Part shown: piece after piece, positions 1 to 17,207 of the stretch
Layout of the letters: each line of letters begins with the position of its first letter
Position numbering within the stretch: the stretch's first letter is position 1
Source: a virus
Taxonomy: Duplodnaviria > Caudoviricetes
Length of the DNA stretch: 27,042 nt
Direction: 5' to 3' (one strand)
IMG/VR virus record: IMGVR_UViG_3300045189_000033
Span: 1 to 27,042 of that record
The notes under the pieces: generated by a model
What the model saw: the letters and a program-made list of their open reading frames with translations, nothing else
Databases searched by the model: none
Told to the model about the DNA's origin: nothing
Translations under genes and position numbers: made by a program

Positions 1-225
1 ACTCGTCACGCCGGCAGGGTCGGACAGCAGCGAAGAGAAGACGTGGTCCGTCAGCCAGCGGGAATCGTCGAAGCGATTGTCGGCGCGCAGGGCTTGCTGG
101 ACAGCGGAATACGCCGCGCCCTGCGGGAATTTGGACTCGAACCACTGGCGGCCGTCATCGCAGGCCTGCCATTCGCGCAGCTTGCGCATGGTGATGGTGA
201 GTTCGGTGGTGGTGATGTTCGACAC
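1..225 (-). CDS. Phage early hypothetical protein (N-terminal 75 codons; runs off window)
   Basis: GTG at 225 with SD GGAGA upstream; open to the window edge (MSNITTTELTITMRKLREWQACDDGRQWFESKFPQGAAY...). Not in the ORF track because it is truncated. Confidence 0.8.
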   Translation of the reverse strand, partial: MSNITTTELTITMRKLREWQACDDGRQWFESKFPQGAAYSAVQQALRADNRFDDSRWLTDHVFSSLLSDPAGVTS

Positions 226-258
226 AGGTTTCTCCTAGCCCGCCACGCGGGCAGTGGG

Positions 259-474
259 TCAGGCGGGAAGGATCTGGCAGAGGTCTTGCGGGAAGGCGCG
301 GGACACCAGCACGGCCCAGGTCGGCGCCATCGAACCGCTGTTGCGGCTGTAGCGGTGGCGCGCGGCCTCAGGCGTGTTCGAGGTCAGGCGGGCAACGGCC
401 GGGCCCTTCGCGGTGGTGCGGATTTCGTACAGGTTCCTGACGGCGATGCCGTAGGTGTCGATGACGTGGTCCAT
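259..474 (-). CDS. Phage early hypothetical protein (71 aa), first ORF of the pL operon
   Basis: ATG at 474 preceded by AAGGGAGA SD; co-oriented with the gene at 1-225. Confidence 0.65.
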   Translation of the reverse strand: MDHVIDTYGIAVRNLYEIRTTAKGPAVARLTSNTPEAARHRYSRNSGSMAPTWAVLVSRAFPQDLCQILPA

Positions 475-514
475 GGTTTCTCCCTTGCTCACCGGGTGGT
501 GAGGTGTCTATCAA

Positions 515-940
515 GACAAGGAGAGATGGGGGAGGAGGTGCGTTGACCTTGGGCAGGGCTTCCGGCTAAAAACGTGCCAGGGTTCACTTTGGGAACCCAA
601 AAAGGAGGTCACCTTGACCCAATTTTTGGACTCCCTGATCCAGCGCAGGTGCGCTAACACCTGATCGCCAGCCATAAGGGAACCTAGAACGCAAACGCCA
701 GGAAGCGGATACCCCCGAAAGCATGTGCTGACAGGGCCCGCGCGTGGGCGGGGTTAGCGACCCACCCAAGCCCTTTGCTGGATACTGGCGGGCAGGTGCA
801 TGGTTGGCACCAAGGTAGGCCGCAAGTCCACGAGAGTGGGTAACTTGCAGCGCCAAGGTACGTTTGGAGCCCTGCCGCGTTCGCCCTCTCGGGTATCCAG
901 CTCGGGATGCCAGGCACCCCCTCTCCCATCTCAACTTGTC
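515..940 (-). ncRNA. Candidate large structured RNA in the pL leader
   Basis: 27-bp terminal inverted repeat (515-541/914-940, 23/27 matches), nested stems 552-563/866-876 and 570-578/857-865, at least six internal hairpins, and no convincing ORF. Confidence 0.7.
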
Positions 941-948
941 AAAGAACG
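936..948 (-). promoter_or_regulatory. boxA-like antitermination element (nutL-like)
   Basis: Minus strand reads CGTTCTTTGACAA, close to rrn/lambdoid boxA (GCTCTTTAACAA), about 40 nt downstream of the predicted pL start. Confidence 0.7.
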
Positions 949-992
949 TGCCTCGGTACTCGGTGATGCGTGAGTGGTGAGGCGTTGGGAGA

Positions 993-1021
993 ATTAAACA
1001 CGACGTTTATTTATAAGTCAA
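993..1021 (-). promoter_or_regulatory. pL-like sigma70 promoter
   Basis: -35 TTGACT (1021-1016), 17-bp spacer, -10 TTTAAT (998-993); overlapped by two operators. Confidence 0.8.
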
Positions 1022-1032
1022 CACAGTGTTTA
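995..1032. promoter_or_regulatory. OL operators (two 15-bp palindromic sites)
   Basis: TAAACACGACGTTTA (995-1009) and TCAACACAGTGTTTA (1018-1032); both match the OR sites. Confidence 0.85.
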
Positions 1033-1041
1033 TTTTTGAGC

Positions 1042-1069
1042 AAAAAAAAAGCCACCGGTTGAGGTGGCT
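1042..1069 (-). terminator. Rho-independent terminator of the repressor transcript
   Basis: Minus strand AGCCACC-TCAACC-GGTGGC followed by T9, just downstream of the 1086-1415 gene. Confidence 0.88.
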
Positions 1070-1085
1070 GTGCCGATGGCAGTGG

Positions 1086-1415
1086 TTACGGCCTTTCCCG
1101 GACCATCTGGAGGTGTCCCTGTGCGAGCGCTTTCGGACCTTCGGCATACGCTGTGCGCCACACCAGCCCATCTGGAGGGAAATCGTAGATTGTCTTGGCG
1201 ATTTCACGGAATGCGGATCGGCACACTGGGTCAGATGGGCTTAGGGAAACTCCCATGGTCTGTAGCTCGTCGGCTACAGCCCGGAAAAATTGCTTTTGAA
1301 TCGGGTGCGCGCGGCGTCGACCGCCGTGTTTATCCACCACGGTCAGCGCTCCCAGCCCGAACCAGTTCAGATGCATAGATATGGAGTCATCGGAATAGAG
1401 CACGAAGGAAAACAT
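1086..1415 (-). CDS. Hypothetical protein (109 aa) downstream of the repressor (rex-like position)
   Basis: AGGAGG SD upstream of ATG 1415; lies between repressor and terminator; AT-richer than the core genes. Confidence 0.7.
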   Translation of the reverse strand: MFSFVLYSDDSISMHLNWFGLGALTVVDKHGGRRRAHPIQKQFFRAVADELQTMGVSLSPSDPVCRSAFREIAKTIYDFPPDGLVWRTAYAEGPKALAQGHLQMVRERP

Positions 1416-1469
1416 ATTGCCGCCTCCTAGCGGATCTCTCTACCACAGGACCAAACCAATGCGATTTGC

Positions 1470-1877
1470 CTAGGCGGCGCGGTTTCCCGCTTGGCTTTTC
1501 TCAGCAATGACGCGGCCTTCAGCAAGCTCGACCGCTGCCTCCAGTTTCCCTTCGACAAACGCGCGGTCTTCGGGCGCTAGCCGCAGGACTCGACGAATGT
1601 CTAGGCGCGTGAACGGCCATTGCTCATCCCGAGGGGCCGCGCCGCCGATGAACATCGGACCCGCACCGGTCATCACCCATGTGGCATTCACACCGAATGC
1701 AGCCTGCGCATCGAGCAACGCTTCCTTTGAGGGACCGCGCTTTTCCCAGTTGTTGACGTTTTGCGGGGCGACGTTCAAGAGGCGGGCCATAGCTGTCTGA
1801 TCGGCGTCGCCAGTGATGCGGCCGGCGGCGCGCGCGGCTTCGTAGAGCCGTTCCATGTGGGCGTGCATTGCTTTCAT
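1470..1877 (-). CDS. cI: CI-like XRE HTH repressor (135 aa), no S24 peptidase domain
   Basis: HTH DQTAMARLLNVAPQNVNNWEKRG, then GVNATWVMTGAGPM; divergent from cro. Start moved to ATG 1877 because the longer ORF runs through the operators. Confidence 0.9.
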   Translation of the reverse strand: MKAMHAHMERLYEAARAAGRITGDADQTAMARLLNVAPQNVNNWEKRGPSKEALLDAQAAFGVNATWVMTGAGPMFIGGAAPRDEQWPFTRLDIRRVLRLAPEDRAFVEGKLEAAVELAEGRVIAEKSQAGNRAA

Positions 1878-1896
1878 GCCGCGATTGTGGCCGTGG

Positions 1897-1952
1897 TCAA
1901 CGCCTTGTTGATACACGCCGTGTTGACCAAACAATTAAACACAGTGTTTAAT
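1897..1952. promoter_or_regulatory. OR operators (three sites) and pR promoter
   Basis: TCAACGCCTTGTTGA (1897-1911), TACACGCCGTGTTGA (1912-1926), TAAACACAGTGTTTA (1936-1950). pR on + strand: -35 TTGACC (1923-1928), -10 TTTAAT (1947-1952), 18-bp spacer. Confidence 0.85.
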
Positions 1953-1972
1953 GAGGGCAAATTGGAGCCCTC

Positions 1973-2182
1973 ATGGACAACGACCTGCACCCTCATGCCG
2001 AAATCATCGATCGCCACGGCGGCCCCACGAAAGTGGCCGAGCTGATGGGGATCCTGGACGAGCCCGGCGCCGTTCAACGCGTGAGCAACTGGAAGCGCCG
2101 CGGTATCCCCGCCGAGGTTCGGCTGGAGTACCCGCATCTCTTCGTGAATCCGGTGGCCGCCCCTGCCCAGGAGGCGGCCTGA
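1973..2182 (+). CDS. cro: Cro-like HTH protein (69 aa)
   Basis: IIDRHGGPTKVAELMG...VQRVSNWKRRGIP motif, GGAG SD, divergent from the repressor. Confidence 0.88.
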   Translation: MDNDLHPHAEIIDRHGGPTKVAELMGILDEPGAVQRVSNWKRRGIPAEVRLEYPHLFVNPVAAPAQEAA

Positions 2183-2183
2183 G

Positions 2184-2600
2184 ATGAGCACCCACTCGAA
2201 AGGCGCCCAGATAGGCGCGCAGATCGCCGCAATTGAGGCTGCTCTCCAGGAGCTGCGCCGACTCCGATCCCATCCGGTCGCACAGATGGCGATGCGGTTA
2301 CGCGAGTCGGCGCGGCGCGTTGAACTGGCTGCGGAGGCCTTGCGCGACGTGGAGAACGGCGTTCTGAACGCCCTAGGGTTCGATGCCGAGCCGCCTAACC
2401 TGGACGATGTGATGTTGTTCCCGAGGGTGAGGCCAACAGATCCTGCAGGAGCTGCTGCATTTGCGCGAGCAGCGTTGAGAACTGCTCTACAGCGCCATCG
2501 GAAATACTTGCTCGAAGTAGAGCGGCTTCTTGAAACGCGCCCGTCTTCGTCAGATTTTCCTGAAGCGATGCCAATTGATCGTGATCCAGGGTGCGAATGA
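2184..2600 (+). CDS. Hypothetical protein (138 aa); 3' half overlaps an antisense gene
   Basis: Starts right after the cro stop with an AGGAGG SD inside the cro 3' end; helical, coiled-coil-like N-terminus. Confidence 0.5.
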   Translation: MSTHSKGAQIGAQIAAIEAALQELRRLRSHPVAQMAMRLRESARRVELAAEALRDVENGVLNALGFDAEPPNLDDVMLFPRVRPTDPAGAAAFARAALRTALQRHRKYLLEVERLLETRPSSSDFPEAMPIDRDPGCE

Positions 2601-2670
2601 TGCCGTTCATCACGATATTCAAGACGGCGGCCTGCGCGAATGCGCGCTCGGCCAGATCGTTCGATTCCAT
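2395..2670 (-). CDS. Hypothetical protein (91 aa), antisense moron-like gene between cro and cII
   Basis: Strong SD GGGAGGAG before ATG 2670; protein-like helical composition; possible -10 TATGCT at 2717-2712. Confidence 0.68.
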   Translation of the reverse strand: MESNDLAERAFAQAAVLNIVMNGIIRTLDHDQLASLQENLTKTGAFQEAALLRASISDGAVEQFSTLLAQMQQLLQDLLASPSGTTSHRPG

Positions 2671-2756
2671 GCCCAGCTCCTCCCGTAAGGGTTTCGTGTG
2701 TGAGAGCCGAAAGCATAGCCCGCATGGGCTGGGCGCCCATTTCGTAGGTGTTGGCG

Positions 2757-3095
2757 ATGTCCATACCTGAATCTTCCGCCGTTACATCTGCACGCGCACG
2801 CAGGATCCAGCAGGCCATCCTGCAACGCCTTGCGAGCGTTGGGCATGCGCATGTGGCCGCATGCGTGGGGCTGGACGAGTCTGCAATCAGCCGGTGGAAG
2901 GACAAGAAGACGGACGGCCGGCCCGGCGAGATTGAGCGCATGGCGCTGTTCCTTGCGTCGCTGGGCCTGAAGGCGACGCCCCAGGAATACAAGTGCTACG
3001 ACGAGGCCACGCTTGCCGCGATGCTGACCCTTGCGCGCCAGCGCATGGACCAGATCAACAACGTGGATCACCTGGCATTCGAGGACGACGAATGA
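2757..3095 (+). CDS. cII: CII-family transcriptional regulator (112 aa)
   Basis: RARRIQQAILQRLASVGHAHVAACVGLDESAISRWK...LASLGLK resembles lambda CII; located between cro and the replication genes. Confidence 0.85.
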   Translation: MSIPESSAVTSARARRIQQAILQRLASVGHAHVAACVGLDESAISRWKDKKTDGRPGEIERMALFLASLGLKATPQEYKCYDEATLAAMLTLARQRMDQINNVDHLAFEDDE

Positions 3096-11217: not shown

Positions 11218-11256
11218 CCGTATCCGTGGTCATCCCCTGGGTTCCAGCGGGACGTT

Positions 11257-11287
11257 GCCGGGGGCTTGTCCCCCGGCTTTTTCATTT
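11257..11287 (+). terminator. Rho-independent terminator after the capsid/cement genes
   Basis: GCCGGGGG-CTTGT-CCCCCGGC followed by TTTTTCATTT. Confidence 0.9.
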
Positions 11288-15228: not shown

Positions 15229-17207
15229 GGATTCCTGTCGGGAACTTCGGAAACCAGGTCGCCCAGCCCGCGCCTGGCGTGAACGTGCCCACGGGCGCGT
15301 ATGTCACTGGCAAGGCCGCCGCCCTGCAGCAGGCTGGCCAGCAGATCGCTGGTATTGGGGCGGATCTGCTGGAGACGCACAGTCGCGCGCAGACCTTGCG
15401 CCAGCTCACCGAATCCAAGGGCGCGCTCATAGATCTACAGGATCGGATATCCCGGTCCGTGGAGGCCGGGGAGCTGGACCCCACCAAGGCGCAGGGCGCC
15501 TGGGATGAGCAGTCGCGTAAGCTGATGAGCGATCAGCTATCCAAAGTGGCCATGGGCCAGCGGGAGACCGTCGGCGCGCAGTTGGGTGAACTGGAGCAAT
15601 CCCTGGGTTTTCGGGTGCGGGACACGGCGACGAAGCGCGTGCAGCAGAATATCGGCGGCGAACTGACGGCGCTGGGCATTTCGCTCGAGCGCGAGCCGGA
15701 CCCGGCAACCGCCTCCCAGCGTTACGACCAGGCCGTGCGTGCCATGGGGCCGGCCGCCGGCTGGGCGCCTGCCCAGATCGAAAACAACATCAACACGTTC
15801 CGGGAGAAGGCCTACGCGACCAAGGCCTACAGCCTGATCAACGGCGCGCGCAACAGCATGGCCGACCTGAACAAGGTGGAATCCATGCTGAACTCGGACG
15901 AGTTCGCCGCCCTGGATCCCCAGCGGCGCGCCGTGCTGCTGAACACGACGGCCGGGTACAAGACGGCGCTGGAACAGCGCGCGGTGGCGGCGGCGCAGCG
16001 GGCCGAGATCGCCGCGGCGCGGCGCGACCGGCAGGCCGCTGGCGTCCTCGCCGAGGTGCAGCAGCTTTCCACGCAGGGGAAGAAGCTGGATCCGCAGTAC
16101 CTGGCCGGCGCGGCGTCGGCGATGCAGGGCACGCCCTACGAAGCCGCCTTCCAGGCAGCCGTCGCGCAGGCGCCGGCCGGCACGGCCTTCGCCATGCAGC
16201 CGCTGCGAAACCAACGCGAGATGCTGGACGGACTACTGGCCGAGGGCAATAGCCGCGGCTGGACACCCACGCGGCAGGACATGTTCGACAAGCTGCAGAA
16301 GTCCTACGAAACCTCCCAGCGCGAGTACAAGGAAGACCCGATGCGCGCCGCGGTCGACCGCGGCGTGCTGCCCGAGCTGGCGCCGCTGGATGTGGGCGCA
16401 GGCGTCCCTGGAATCGTTGAAGGTGTGCAGGCGCGCCTGCAGCAGGCCCAGCAGGTCGAGGTGGTAGTGGGGCGTCCGGTATCGCCGTTCACATCCGACG
16501 AGGCCCTGCAGGTCGCGTCTGCCTTCAATGCCTTGCCGCCCGACCAGCGCGCCACCAGCATCGCGACGCTGTCCAAGGCCGTGGGCACGCGCACCATGTC
16601 AGCCATCGCCGCCCAGCTCGATAGCAAGGACCGGACCTTGGCCCTGGCCGCTGCACTCGGTGACCAGCAGCGCCCCAACGGCGGCCTGGTGTCGGAGCAG
16701 GTCATCCGCGGTGAGCAGGCCATGAAGGACAAGCGCGTGACTGAGGCCGACGTGACGCGCTGGCGGTCGGAAATGGCCAAGATGGTGCGCGGTGTATTCG
16801 CCACGCCGGAAATGGAAGACGCGGTAATCGATGCCGCCGTGCGCGTGCGCGCGGATGCTGATGTGCGCAAGGAAGGTCGCAGCATCCGCAACGCGGTGGA
16901 GACAGTGGCCGGCGGCATCATCGACTTCAACGGCGGCAAGATCCCGCTGCCGCTGGGGATGACGGAGAGTCAGTTTGAGCGTGGGCTGACCGCGCTGACG
17001 CCCGAAAGCTTCGCGGATCAGGCGCCGGATGGCAATGTCTTAGTGGCCGGCCGGGCCGTCCCGGTGGCCGAGTTCGTCAGGGATCTCCCCAACGCCGTGC
17101 TGCGCCACGCCGGCCAGGGTCGCTACACCGTGTCGTCCGGCACGGGCGTCGTGCTGAATCAGGCCGGCCAGCCGGTCATCGTGAGGGTGAGCAATGGCAC
17201 TCGATGA
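15225..17207 (+). CDS. Internal virion (ejection) protein (660 aa)
   Basis: ATGA-coupled start MRIP at 15225; helical and Ala/Gln-rich; synteny. Confidence 0.7.
   Translation: MRIPVGNFGNQVAQPAPGVNVPTGAYVTGKAAALQQAGQQIAGIGADLLETHSRAQTLRQLTESKGALIDLQDRISRSVEAGELDPTKAQGAWDEQSRKLMSDQLSKVAMGQRETVGAQLGELEQSLGFRVRDTATKRVQQNIGGELTALGISLEREPDPATASQRYDQAVRAMGPAAGWAPAQIENNINTFREKAYATKAYSLINGARNSMADLNKVESMLNSDEFAALDPQRRAVLLNTTAGYKTALEQRAVAAAQRAEIAAARRDRQAAGVLAEVQQLSTQGKKLDPQYLAGAASAMQGTPYEAAFQAAVAQAPAGTAFAMQPLRNQREMLDGLLAEGNSRGWTPTRQDMFDKLQKSYETSQREYKEDPMRAAVDRGVLPELAPLDVGAGVPGIVEGVQARLQQAQQVEVVVGRPVSPFTSDEALQVASAFNALPPDQRATSIATLSKAVGTRTMSAIAAQLDSKDRTLALAAALGDQQRPNGGLVSEQVIRGEQAMKDKRVTEADVTRWRSEMAKMVRGVFATPEMEDAVIDAAVRVRADADVRKEGRSIRNAVETVAGGIIDFNGGKIPLPLGMTESQFERGLTALTPESFADQAPDGNVLVAGRAVPVAEFVRDLPNAVLRHAGQGRYTVSSGTGVVLNQAGQPVIVRVSNGTR

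Follow-up and report, generated by a model that had tools for sequence, protein, structure and literature searches.

Directly behind the predicted early-left promoter (pL) of a temperate phage lies a large, conserved, non-coding and structured RNA, encoded on the strand that pL would transcribe. It represents a real, apparently undescribed RNA family carried in an exchangeable frame of rRNA style. The window (the whole stretch of DNA analysed, 27,042 nt) corresponds to the 27-kb virus record examined. An earlier note, made from the letters of the window, had proposed a structured RNA of about 430 nt on the pL (minus) strand, and folding, covariation and open reading frame (ORF) tests bear out its large, conserved, non-coding and structured character. 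The functional unit is narrower than the proposed extent: a core of about 365 nt (543–913) lies within the exchangeable frame. The strongest feature of the core, a kissing interaction between two hairpin loops, was missing from the fold in that note.

The pL leader and the RNA behind it

The window phage is temperate, with cI, cro, cII, replication genes, a T7-like head–tail adaptor, capsid and tail genes assigned by PHROGs. Relatives of its repressor are found in Achromobacter and Bordetella ansorpii genomes, and all 24 sequencing runs listed with the window stretch are ant metagenomes. The following features bear on the RNA and its promoter:

259–474, minus strand: first early-left ORF, 71 aa, without a family, with a Shine-Dalgarno-like AAGGGAG; no link to the RNA
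496–504 and 974–982: 9-nt direct repeat around the whole cassette, read from the sequence
515–541, minus strand: 3′ arm of the closing stem (inverted repeat)
543–913, minus strand: conserved core RNA, 371 nt here (alignments A6/A7, pair counts)
914–940, minus strand: 5′ arm of the closing stem, a predicted RNase III processing stem (inverted repeat)
936–948, minus strand: boxA-like CGTTCTTTGACAA, present in 6/6 full copies
992–1037: two operator-like 23-nt repeats over pL (repeat family D1, palindrome I7)
993–1021, minus strand: pL-like sigma70 promoter, TTGACT (1021–1016), 17 nt, TTTAAT (998–993), read from the sequence
1041–1069, minus strand: intrinsic terminator-like site directly before pL, at the end of the transcript from the cI side
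1470–1868, minus strand: cI-like repressor (PHROGs)
1973–2182: cro (PHROGs)
2748–3095: cII (PHROGs)

Several other elements of the window lack an assignment. A 109-aa ORF in a rex-like slot between cI and the terminator before pL (1086–1415, minus strand) has no PHROG or Pfam family, and neither of two orphan ORFs that overlap each other between cro and cII (2184–2600, plus strand; 2395–2670, minus strand) has a PHROG family. Sub-gathering Rfam matches to guanidine-II (17051–17094, minus strand) and SorX (11232–11283, a terminator-like hairpin) are probably due to chance.

The promoter stands where the earlier note had placed it, upstream of the element and pointing into it, with a predicted transcription start near 986. 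Its hexamers are identical in the related phages L036–L039; a consensus promoter scanner did not report the site because of the scanner's rule for position 2. From the operator-like repeats that overlap pL, we infer that CI represses this promoter; a third copy of the 23-nt repeat lies between cI and cro (1933–1955).

The boxA-like 13-mer CGTTCTTTGACAA (948–936) has its sole exact match in the 27 kb at this position, the other match, with two mismatches, being at chance level. A single base separates it from the spacer boxA in rRNA operons of the host family, and a single base from the consensus GYTCTTTAANA (PMC5725501). Among the six full copies of the RNA, two match that consensus perfectly and four carry A8>G. 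The boxA had been described as preceding the stem; the 13-mer is present but shares 5 nt with the start of the stem arm. The closing stem itself is an inverted repeat of 27 nt with 85% (23/27) complementarity, the longest within positions 1–3000, as had been claimed. Although the arm sequences differ among members, all six full copies can form a duplex of about 20–30 bp, at −36.8 to −58.1 kcal/mol. Support for the stem comes from these per-sequence duplexes, since its column covariation is weak and slid controls score alike (the arms align poorly).

The layout of promoter, boxA and long closing stem is thus rRNA-like on the minus strand, as the earlier note had read it. In rRNA, boxA adjoins the upstream stem arm, and tethering by NusB/E is a proposed aid to the meeting of the arms (PMC4807359). 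The phage leader resembles the leaders and spacers of rRNA operons, with their NusB/E/A/G–SuhB and RNase III stems, in that boxA adjoins the upstream arm and a folded RNA is enclosed. It differs in its phage early promoter, in its exchangeable non-rRNA cargo (L049, below) and in its cleavage, which is only predicted. By analogy with rRNA, it is quite probable that RNase III would release the core from the closing stem.

Folding on the minus strand reaches −221 kcal/mol (z −8.24), which none of 100 shuffled sequences reaches, as against z −5.34 on the plus strand. When the closing stem is left out (542–913), the values are z −4.4 (minus) and −2.7 (plus). The antisense folds as well or better in L047, L063 and L095, so that the folding score does not always favour the pL strand; one-sided exchanges between G-C and G-U fit the minus strand. 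ORFs across the region had been called spurious, and every frame on both strands indeed contains stops in all six full copies. A 54-aa minus-strand ORF (511–675) was rejected, its start codon being lost in 4/8 members.

A search with cmscan (E up to 5) finds no Rfam family on the element in the window, the two sub-gathering matches lying elsewhere, and eight further loci, six homologues among them, give no match on the element at E up to 2. The view that the element is not a tRNA, tmRNA or RNase P RNA holds, there being no ARAGORN or Rfam match and no conserved ORF; SRP and 6S RNA are likewise without a match on the element in Rfam. The literature searched, from which most subscription journals fall outside, contains no description of the RNA or of any of six conserved 15–18-mers. 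Viral candidates in the catalogue of Fremin et al. measure at most 151 nt (PMC10690425), and three of its six listed supplementary files contain no match, although a fragment could be catalogued there.

Homologues and the exchangeable cassette

The family is rare within the genomes searched. Among 401 host-family genomes (GTDB), blastn finds a single full match, 77% identical, whereas 0/401 genomes of the host order have one; further GTDB relatives, largely the same genomes, add no new member. A first, separate pattern scan gave 27 stretches, of which one, the window's twin, is real. Blocks shared by the window and the 77% match then served as seeds for pattern searches in IMG/VR and JGI metagenomes, with filtering by nhmmer. 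Viral scans held true copies at 5/9, 3/3, 3/10, 7/89 and 7/12, and a metagenome scan at 4/32, the remainder being dropped as chance. No homologue is found by blastn in INPHARED phages (five 32-bp chance matches in a coding gene) or in PLSDB plasmids and E. coli genomes.

A sequence-only model gives weak matches in 5/151 and 6/150 genomes, and the best three were rejected: L253 is an AT-rich chromosomal spacer that shares mainly a 15-mer, and L254 and L255 are diffuse GC-rich matches. In L253 (1500–1625, G809) the 15-mer CAAAAATTGGGTCAA sits in a similar hairpin, judged to be chance, in a spacer between what we take from translations to be NadA-like and YebC-like genes. The loci L186, L158 and L056 are unrelated to the RNA.

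The earlier note had called for homologues in related prophages, and eight distinct members are now known, in temperate phages that include those of GTDB hosts near Bordetella. Six are full, L095 is truncated at the 5′ end by an inserted gene and L208 is cut by a contig edge; the core is 66–88% identical among them. In each of the six full copies, the RNA lies behind boxA in a pL leader and is enclosed by a long stem whose sequence varies; flanks and repressors are unrelated from copy to copy. There is one match per phage record and none at pR (5/5 records). Core length is 344–371 nt in the full copies. Conservation begins abruptly at UUGGC (913) and stops at GUCAA (543); the core ends, (U/C)UGGC...GUCAA with GGUCAA at the 3′ terminus, pair as a short basal helix.

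The frame can be empty, can be added to another leader or can hold another cargo. L036 is an empty site, where the promoter is joined straight to the downstream flank, with both flanks back to back, and it matches the 9-nt repeat 974–982/496–504. The cassette is absent from the 10 related leaders read (L002 and L032–L039, except for the window's twin); L002 carries a 92% identical counterpart of the 259–474 gene behind a different leader. In L067, the cassette precedes a complete common leader with its own boxA. In L095, it is placed behind such a leader, also with its own boxA, and an inserted gene replaces the 5′ end of the RNA, the core being retained behind that gene. In L049, a prophage in G146, nearly the same frame ends enclose an unrelated folded cargo of about 250 nt. 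The unit is therefore an optional cassette of boxA, processing stem and cargo. The L049 cargo has no Rfam match and is probably another undescribed phage RNA. Pattern matches to the frame in 371 genomes were also inspected, and 3/5 were rejected, having no strong closing stem.

Other leaders show related arrangements. The L049 locus (1505–1830; G146:C16, about 1087330–1087660) has boxA, a long stem and TTGTCTTGATA, with z −4.2 when the frame is included. In L048 (1470–1545, G324), that pL leader with its 5′ stem arm survives as a remnant next to a tRNA-like gene and a sigma-factor-like ORF, and the cargo has apparently been lost. A recurring leader module, CCCCACGGACCC... followed by boxA and often by GGCCGCCCGCCC..., is present in L038 (6190–6500), L067, L095 (2400–2200) and L233; this is the leader normally present, to which the cassette comes as an addition; it lies downstream of the cassette in L067 and has no Rfam match in L038. 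In L002 (2600–3000), a chain of hairpins follows boxA in the pL leader (z −2.8), before the same first gene as in the window. The short motif GCCCGGATGCCCA...GGCTGCAAC is common to the otherwise different pL leaders of L034 (4990–5090) and L037 (6600–6700); as look-alikes of the RNA, these two leaders were rejected, since they fold no better than shuffles and give no model match. A CRISPR spacer (L242:1501–1535, G084:C24) starts with GTTCTTTGACAAC, like the start of the cassette's boxA, and then diverges. G084 is a host genome carrying the RNA, and a second CRISPR array there (L251) has a boxA in its leader.

Among phage leaders, that of lambda pL holds nutL, with a boxA, and an RNase III site. 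The window leader shares its boxA with nutL and, like the lambda leader and HK022 put, places a structured RNA directly after the pL of a temperate phage. According to PMC9378689, put elements are about 70 nt long with two stem-loops, occur as putL and putR, bind the beta-prime zinc domain of RNA polymerase and suppress termination, and are active untethered from the transcript; the window RNA is five times larger, single and optional. The core could act as an RNA antiterminator, binding RNA polymerase, with or without Nus factors, so that the pL transcript reads through terminators without a recognised N. We regard this as unlikely. The element does follow pL and boxA directly, and neither an N-like family (the window operon being extended via L001) nor boxB/N is recognised in the left arm. 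Excision of the core would not exclude antitermination either, because put acts untethered (PMC9378689). What weakens the reading is that the cassette is added to leaders that already bear their own boxA (L067, L095), and only once per record, with none at pR, as opposed to the putL/putR pair; related phages also manage without it.

Loop–loop pairing and the architecture of the core

The core is described by the following helices and hairpins:

742–772, minus strand: hairpin with kissing loop 1, CGCUAA at 759–754; 31 nt in 8/8 members
640–673, minus strand: hairpin with kissing loop 2, UUAGCG at 657–652; 34 nt in 8/8 members
705–741, minus strand: helix 741–737/709–705 and a variable arm; 3/5 pairs double-changed, 95% paired
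791–876, minus strand: GGCAGG/CCUGCC helix 876–871/796–791, with a conserved internal loop and a length-variable arm
591–635, minus strand: hairpin with the 15-mer CAAAAAUUGGGUCAA (628–614), invariant in 8/8 members
548–554, minus strand: 3′ strand of an alternative helix with 770–764, which competes with the kissing-loop-1 hairpin

When column pairs are searched without bias, the top-ranked helix is one that nobody had predicted, 754–759/652–657. Its 6 bp are Watson–Crick in 48/48 cells, with 4/6 pairs double-changed, and none of 500 column shuffles yields a 6-bp helix that is paired throughout and has at least two double changes. The loop occurs in six versions, and loops from different versions fit at only 2–5 of 6 positions. 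The two loops are complementary to each other and not self-complementary, and both are unpaired in nested ensembles (loop 1 with a probability of 0.63–0.99). The covariation in the alignment thus shows a 6-bp contact between the loops of two hairpins whose lengths do not vary; the contact may form inside a single molecule or link separate copies. The hairpins that present the loops covary as well: in 742–772, 6/10 pairs are double-changed and 83.8% of cells are paired, and in the upper stem of 640–673, 3/6 pairs are double-changed and 95.8% are paired.

The GGCAGG/CCUGCC helix changes from G-C to A-U on both sides in 2/8 members, and the 591–635 hairpin has one-sided G-C/G-U changes that fit the minus strand. 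The arm 856–812 varies from 21 to 45 nt and another arm from 27 to 32 nt. A 90-pair model with three pseudoknots pairs 94.6% of 691 cells, as compared with 29–41% for slid controls, and is reached by 0/500 shuffles; it was drawn from the same alignment on which it was tested, and its pair counts, from eight related sequences, are not independent events. Covariation, which the earlier note had asked of homologues, is present in the form of 20 double-changed pairs in this model. Six of its 15 helices are without covariation support because they have neither single- nor double-sided changes. Among the 378 alignment columns, 172 are invariant, and segment lengths are fixed. The invariant core allows several mutually exclusive pairings, unranked by present data, and a short unpaired segment near 578–567 varies freely. 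A loop-E motif formed by the invariant AGUA and GAA strands has been considered; L095 has GGUA.

The nested fold of the earlier note fares differently in the window and in the homologues. Its listed complementarities exist in the window but the fold fails across members: helix 552–563/866–876 pairs in only 75.7% of cells and helix 570–578/857–865 in 58.3% (8 homologues), and 733–774, which the note had enclosed in helix 696–701/785–790, has a pairing probability of 0.01. Together, four of the proposed helices do not beat shuffles (142/500 for pairing, 96/500 for the covariation score). Conversely, helix 696–701/785–790 and the hairpin inside the stacked helices at 631–682 hold across homologues. 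The CCC-GAGA-GGG hairpin keeps its three pairs in 5/7 copies, although the GAGA tetraloop occurs in only three.

Strand 770–764 takes part in two mutually exclusive registers, both of which covary. The alternative helix 548–554/770–764 forms 41/42 pairs in the six full copies, with 2/7 pairs double-changed, and is lost in L095 and L208. The two registers may represent a switch, a strand exchange between copies or an effect of too few sequences. A cis-acting switch, in which the sensing of a ligand or protein would flip helices and so control RNase III cleavage or early-left expression, would draw on these registers and on the position of the element upstream of the first ORF. We consider it quite unlikely, given that the closing stem (−37 to −58 kcal/mol) shuts the core off from the ribosome site further downstream, that the 3′ end of the core has no U-tailed terminator, that downstream genes differ among carriers and that the core persists in L095 with a gene inserted ahead of it.

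Pairing between two different loops also occurs in phi29 pRNA, where it builds a ring on the packaging motor. ARRPOF and OLE RNAs form dimers through loop–loop pairing, according to PMC12990946. As in these RNAs, two different loops of the window RNA pair and could in principle join copies, but its sequence is unrelated to theirs, and nothing ties it to a packaging motor, to a plasmid origin or to Oap proteins. A virion-assembly RNA of the phi29 kind, joined into a ring by its two complementary, non-self-complementary loops on arms of fixed length, is highly improbable. Portal, capsid and terminase families are unrelated among carriers (three have a portal and capsid family in common, that of the window is a second one, and a fifth carrier differs in its terminase), the large terminases are ordinary and most related phages lack the RNA.

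ROOL (about 581 nt) and GOLLD (often >800 nt) are pseudoknotted RNAs of phages and prophages for which no protein partner is known, and the kissing loop of ROOL, first seen by covariation, proved to be intermolecular, joining copies into cages (PMC12286853 for both points, PMC5737381 for the first). The window RNA is like them in being large, multi-junction, pseudoknotted and phage-borne, without a known partner and with a covarying kissing loop. It differs in having no Rfam match, a core of 344–371 nt (as against about 550–850 nt) and more invariant positions. It is fixed after pL in a frame of boxA and long stem, instead of the tRNA islands in which ROOL and GOLLD often occur; all members with context sit in temperate phages, and 2/7 carriers have a tRNA downstream. 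As judged from these sequence comparisons, it is ROOL/GOLLD-like in kind, has an unrelated sequence and is not a member by model match or size. The parts of the ROOL/GOLLD literature consulted do not mention an rRNA-type frame or a fixed position after pL.

It is very improbable that the element is a relic, whether functionless or selfish, that merely rides along in the pL leader. Rarity (1/401 host-family genomes, 0/401 of the order) and the 5′ truncation of one member by an inserted gene would suit a relic. Compensatory changes and invariant junctions at 66–88% identity, kept despite unrelated flanks and repressors, argue against it, as does the lack of a mobility gene.

Transcripts, partners and possible roles

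Four of six listed ant RNA-seq runs were examined, all chosen for holding the window stretch, and their contigs are uninformative on strand, level and true ends. In three of the four, the deepest contig lies wholly within the element (X20, 598–913, depth 27; X22, 527–821, depth 179; X24, 547–914, depth 68), other phage contigs having depths of 2–7. The X20 and X24 contigs, from two studies, stop at the border of stem and core (913/914) without loose letters. In X19, a contig at 443–979 runs through both stem arms, at a near-background depth of 12 (neighbours 5–9). These contigs are a weak hint of a stable processed RNA; stretches without coverage are given no weight.

The genes around the RNA differ from carrier to carrier. 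Contig L001 (G005) carries an identical copy, and its early-left operon continues up to the integrase with RecT, YqaJ, a methylase and genes of unassigned family. A 286-aa early protein with many tandem AQIGSSG-type repeats is encoded at 3–224 of the window (minus strand) and in L060 (9469–10329), and repeat proteins of other kinds occupy the same operon in other carriers. The early-left operons of L063 (4694–4769) and L078 (5275–5351) include tRNA-Arg(TCT) genes; in these 2/7 carriers, the tRNA lies on the same strand as the RNA, 1.3 and 2.1 kb downstream.

The seven carrier records hold 1,670 ORFs, and the only ones with matches in at least four other carriers are spurious ORFs that lie over the RNA; several of the records are fragmentary, and a gene common to the carriers could have escaped the comparison. 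By this comparison of gene content, the RNA is shown to be independent of phage protein, and any partner would be a host molecule or the RNA itself, because no phage protein is common to the carriers.

Guide and template RNAs are similar to the core in size and pseudoknot content. If the RNA served as guide, template or mimic for an enzyme whose gene lies elsewhere, such as a host defence reverse transcriptase, a nuclease or a recombinase, it could use the freely varying unpaired segment near 578–567. This reading is improbable: the neighbours differ, no reverse transcriptase, nuclease or recombinase is common to the seven carrier records, and the RNA, unlike retron, DRT, OMEGA and bridge RNAs, has no adjacent cognate enzyme gene common to them. 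The variable arms are base-paired, and no conserved antisense target was found, no core 11-mer recurring elsewhere, at the same column, in more than two of the seven carrier phages.

A ribozyme that cuts or joins itself or another RNA, for instance a tRNA, with the invariant junctions as its active site, would agree with the 172/378 invariant columns, the fixed segment lengths, the several pseudoknots, the lack of a protein partner and the downstream tRNA-Arg(TCT) of two carriers. It is nevertheless rather unlikely. The window and eight other loci give no match to a ribozyme or intron family (E up to 2–5), and 5/7 carriers have no nearby tRNA in the same operon. The claim of the earlier note that the element is no catalogued intron stands: besides the missing Rfam match, the flanks are stem arms and not exons, and inspection by eye reveals neither the P7 signature of group I nor the domain V signature of group II.

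The reading that we prefer, tentatively and at somewhat less than an even chance, is that the RNA is an optional pL cassette, folded with the help of Nus factors and released by RNase III, which acts in trans as a stable, protein-free particle and neutralises a host factor early in lytic growth. CI would repress pL until induction turns on transcription of the cassette. By analogy with rRNA, NusB/E on boxA would tether the 5′ arm to RNA polymerase until the far 3′ arm arrives. After the RNase III cut, trimming would leave a 5′ end near 913, and the paired kissing loops would give a compact or oligomeric particle. This particle may serve as a decoy or scaffold by binding a host factor, which is a guess based on position and on elimination. 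Lambdoid phages keep host-takeover and counter-defence genes in the early-left operon, and because of this a decoy or scaffold is the most likely use.

Large ornate RNAs are seldom met in bacteria and phages, and no function is known for ROOL or GOLLD. More speculatively, and at well under an even chance, temperate phages may have borrowed the rRNA production line of the host (boxA, Nus chaperones and RNase III stem) as a plug-in cassette for stable RNA machines. Its protein-free cargo, self-assembling by way of the kissing loops, would disarm a bacterial defence or take over a host enzyme within minutes of the onset of lytic growth, or would itself be a new catalytic RNA. The frame suggests a general search rule, namely boxA and a long closing stem in pL leaders. 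The RNA is smaller than ROOL and GOLLD, its core is highly conserved, its location behind an inducible promoter of a familiar kind does not vary, and it comes with natural controls: an empty site, a swapped cargo and six kissing-loop versions for compensatory tests. Thus, what phages use such RNAs for becomes directly testable.
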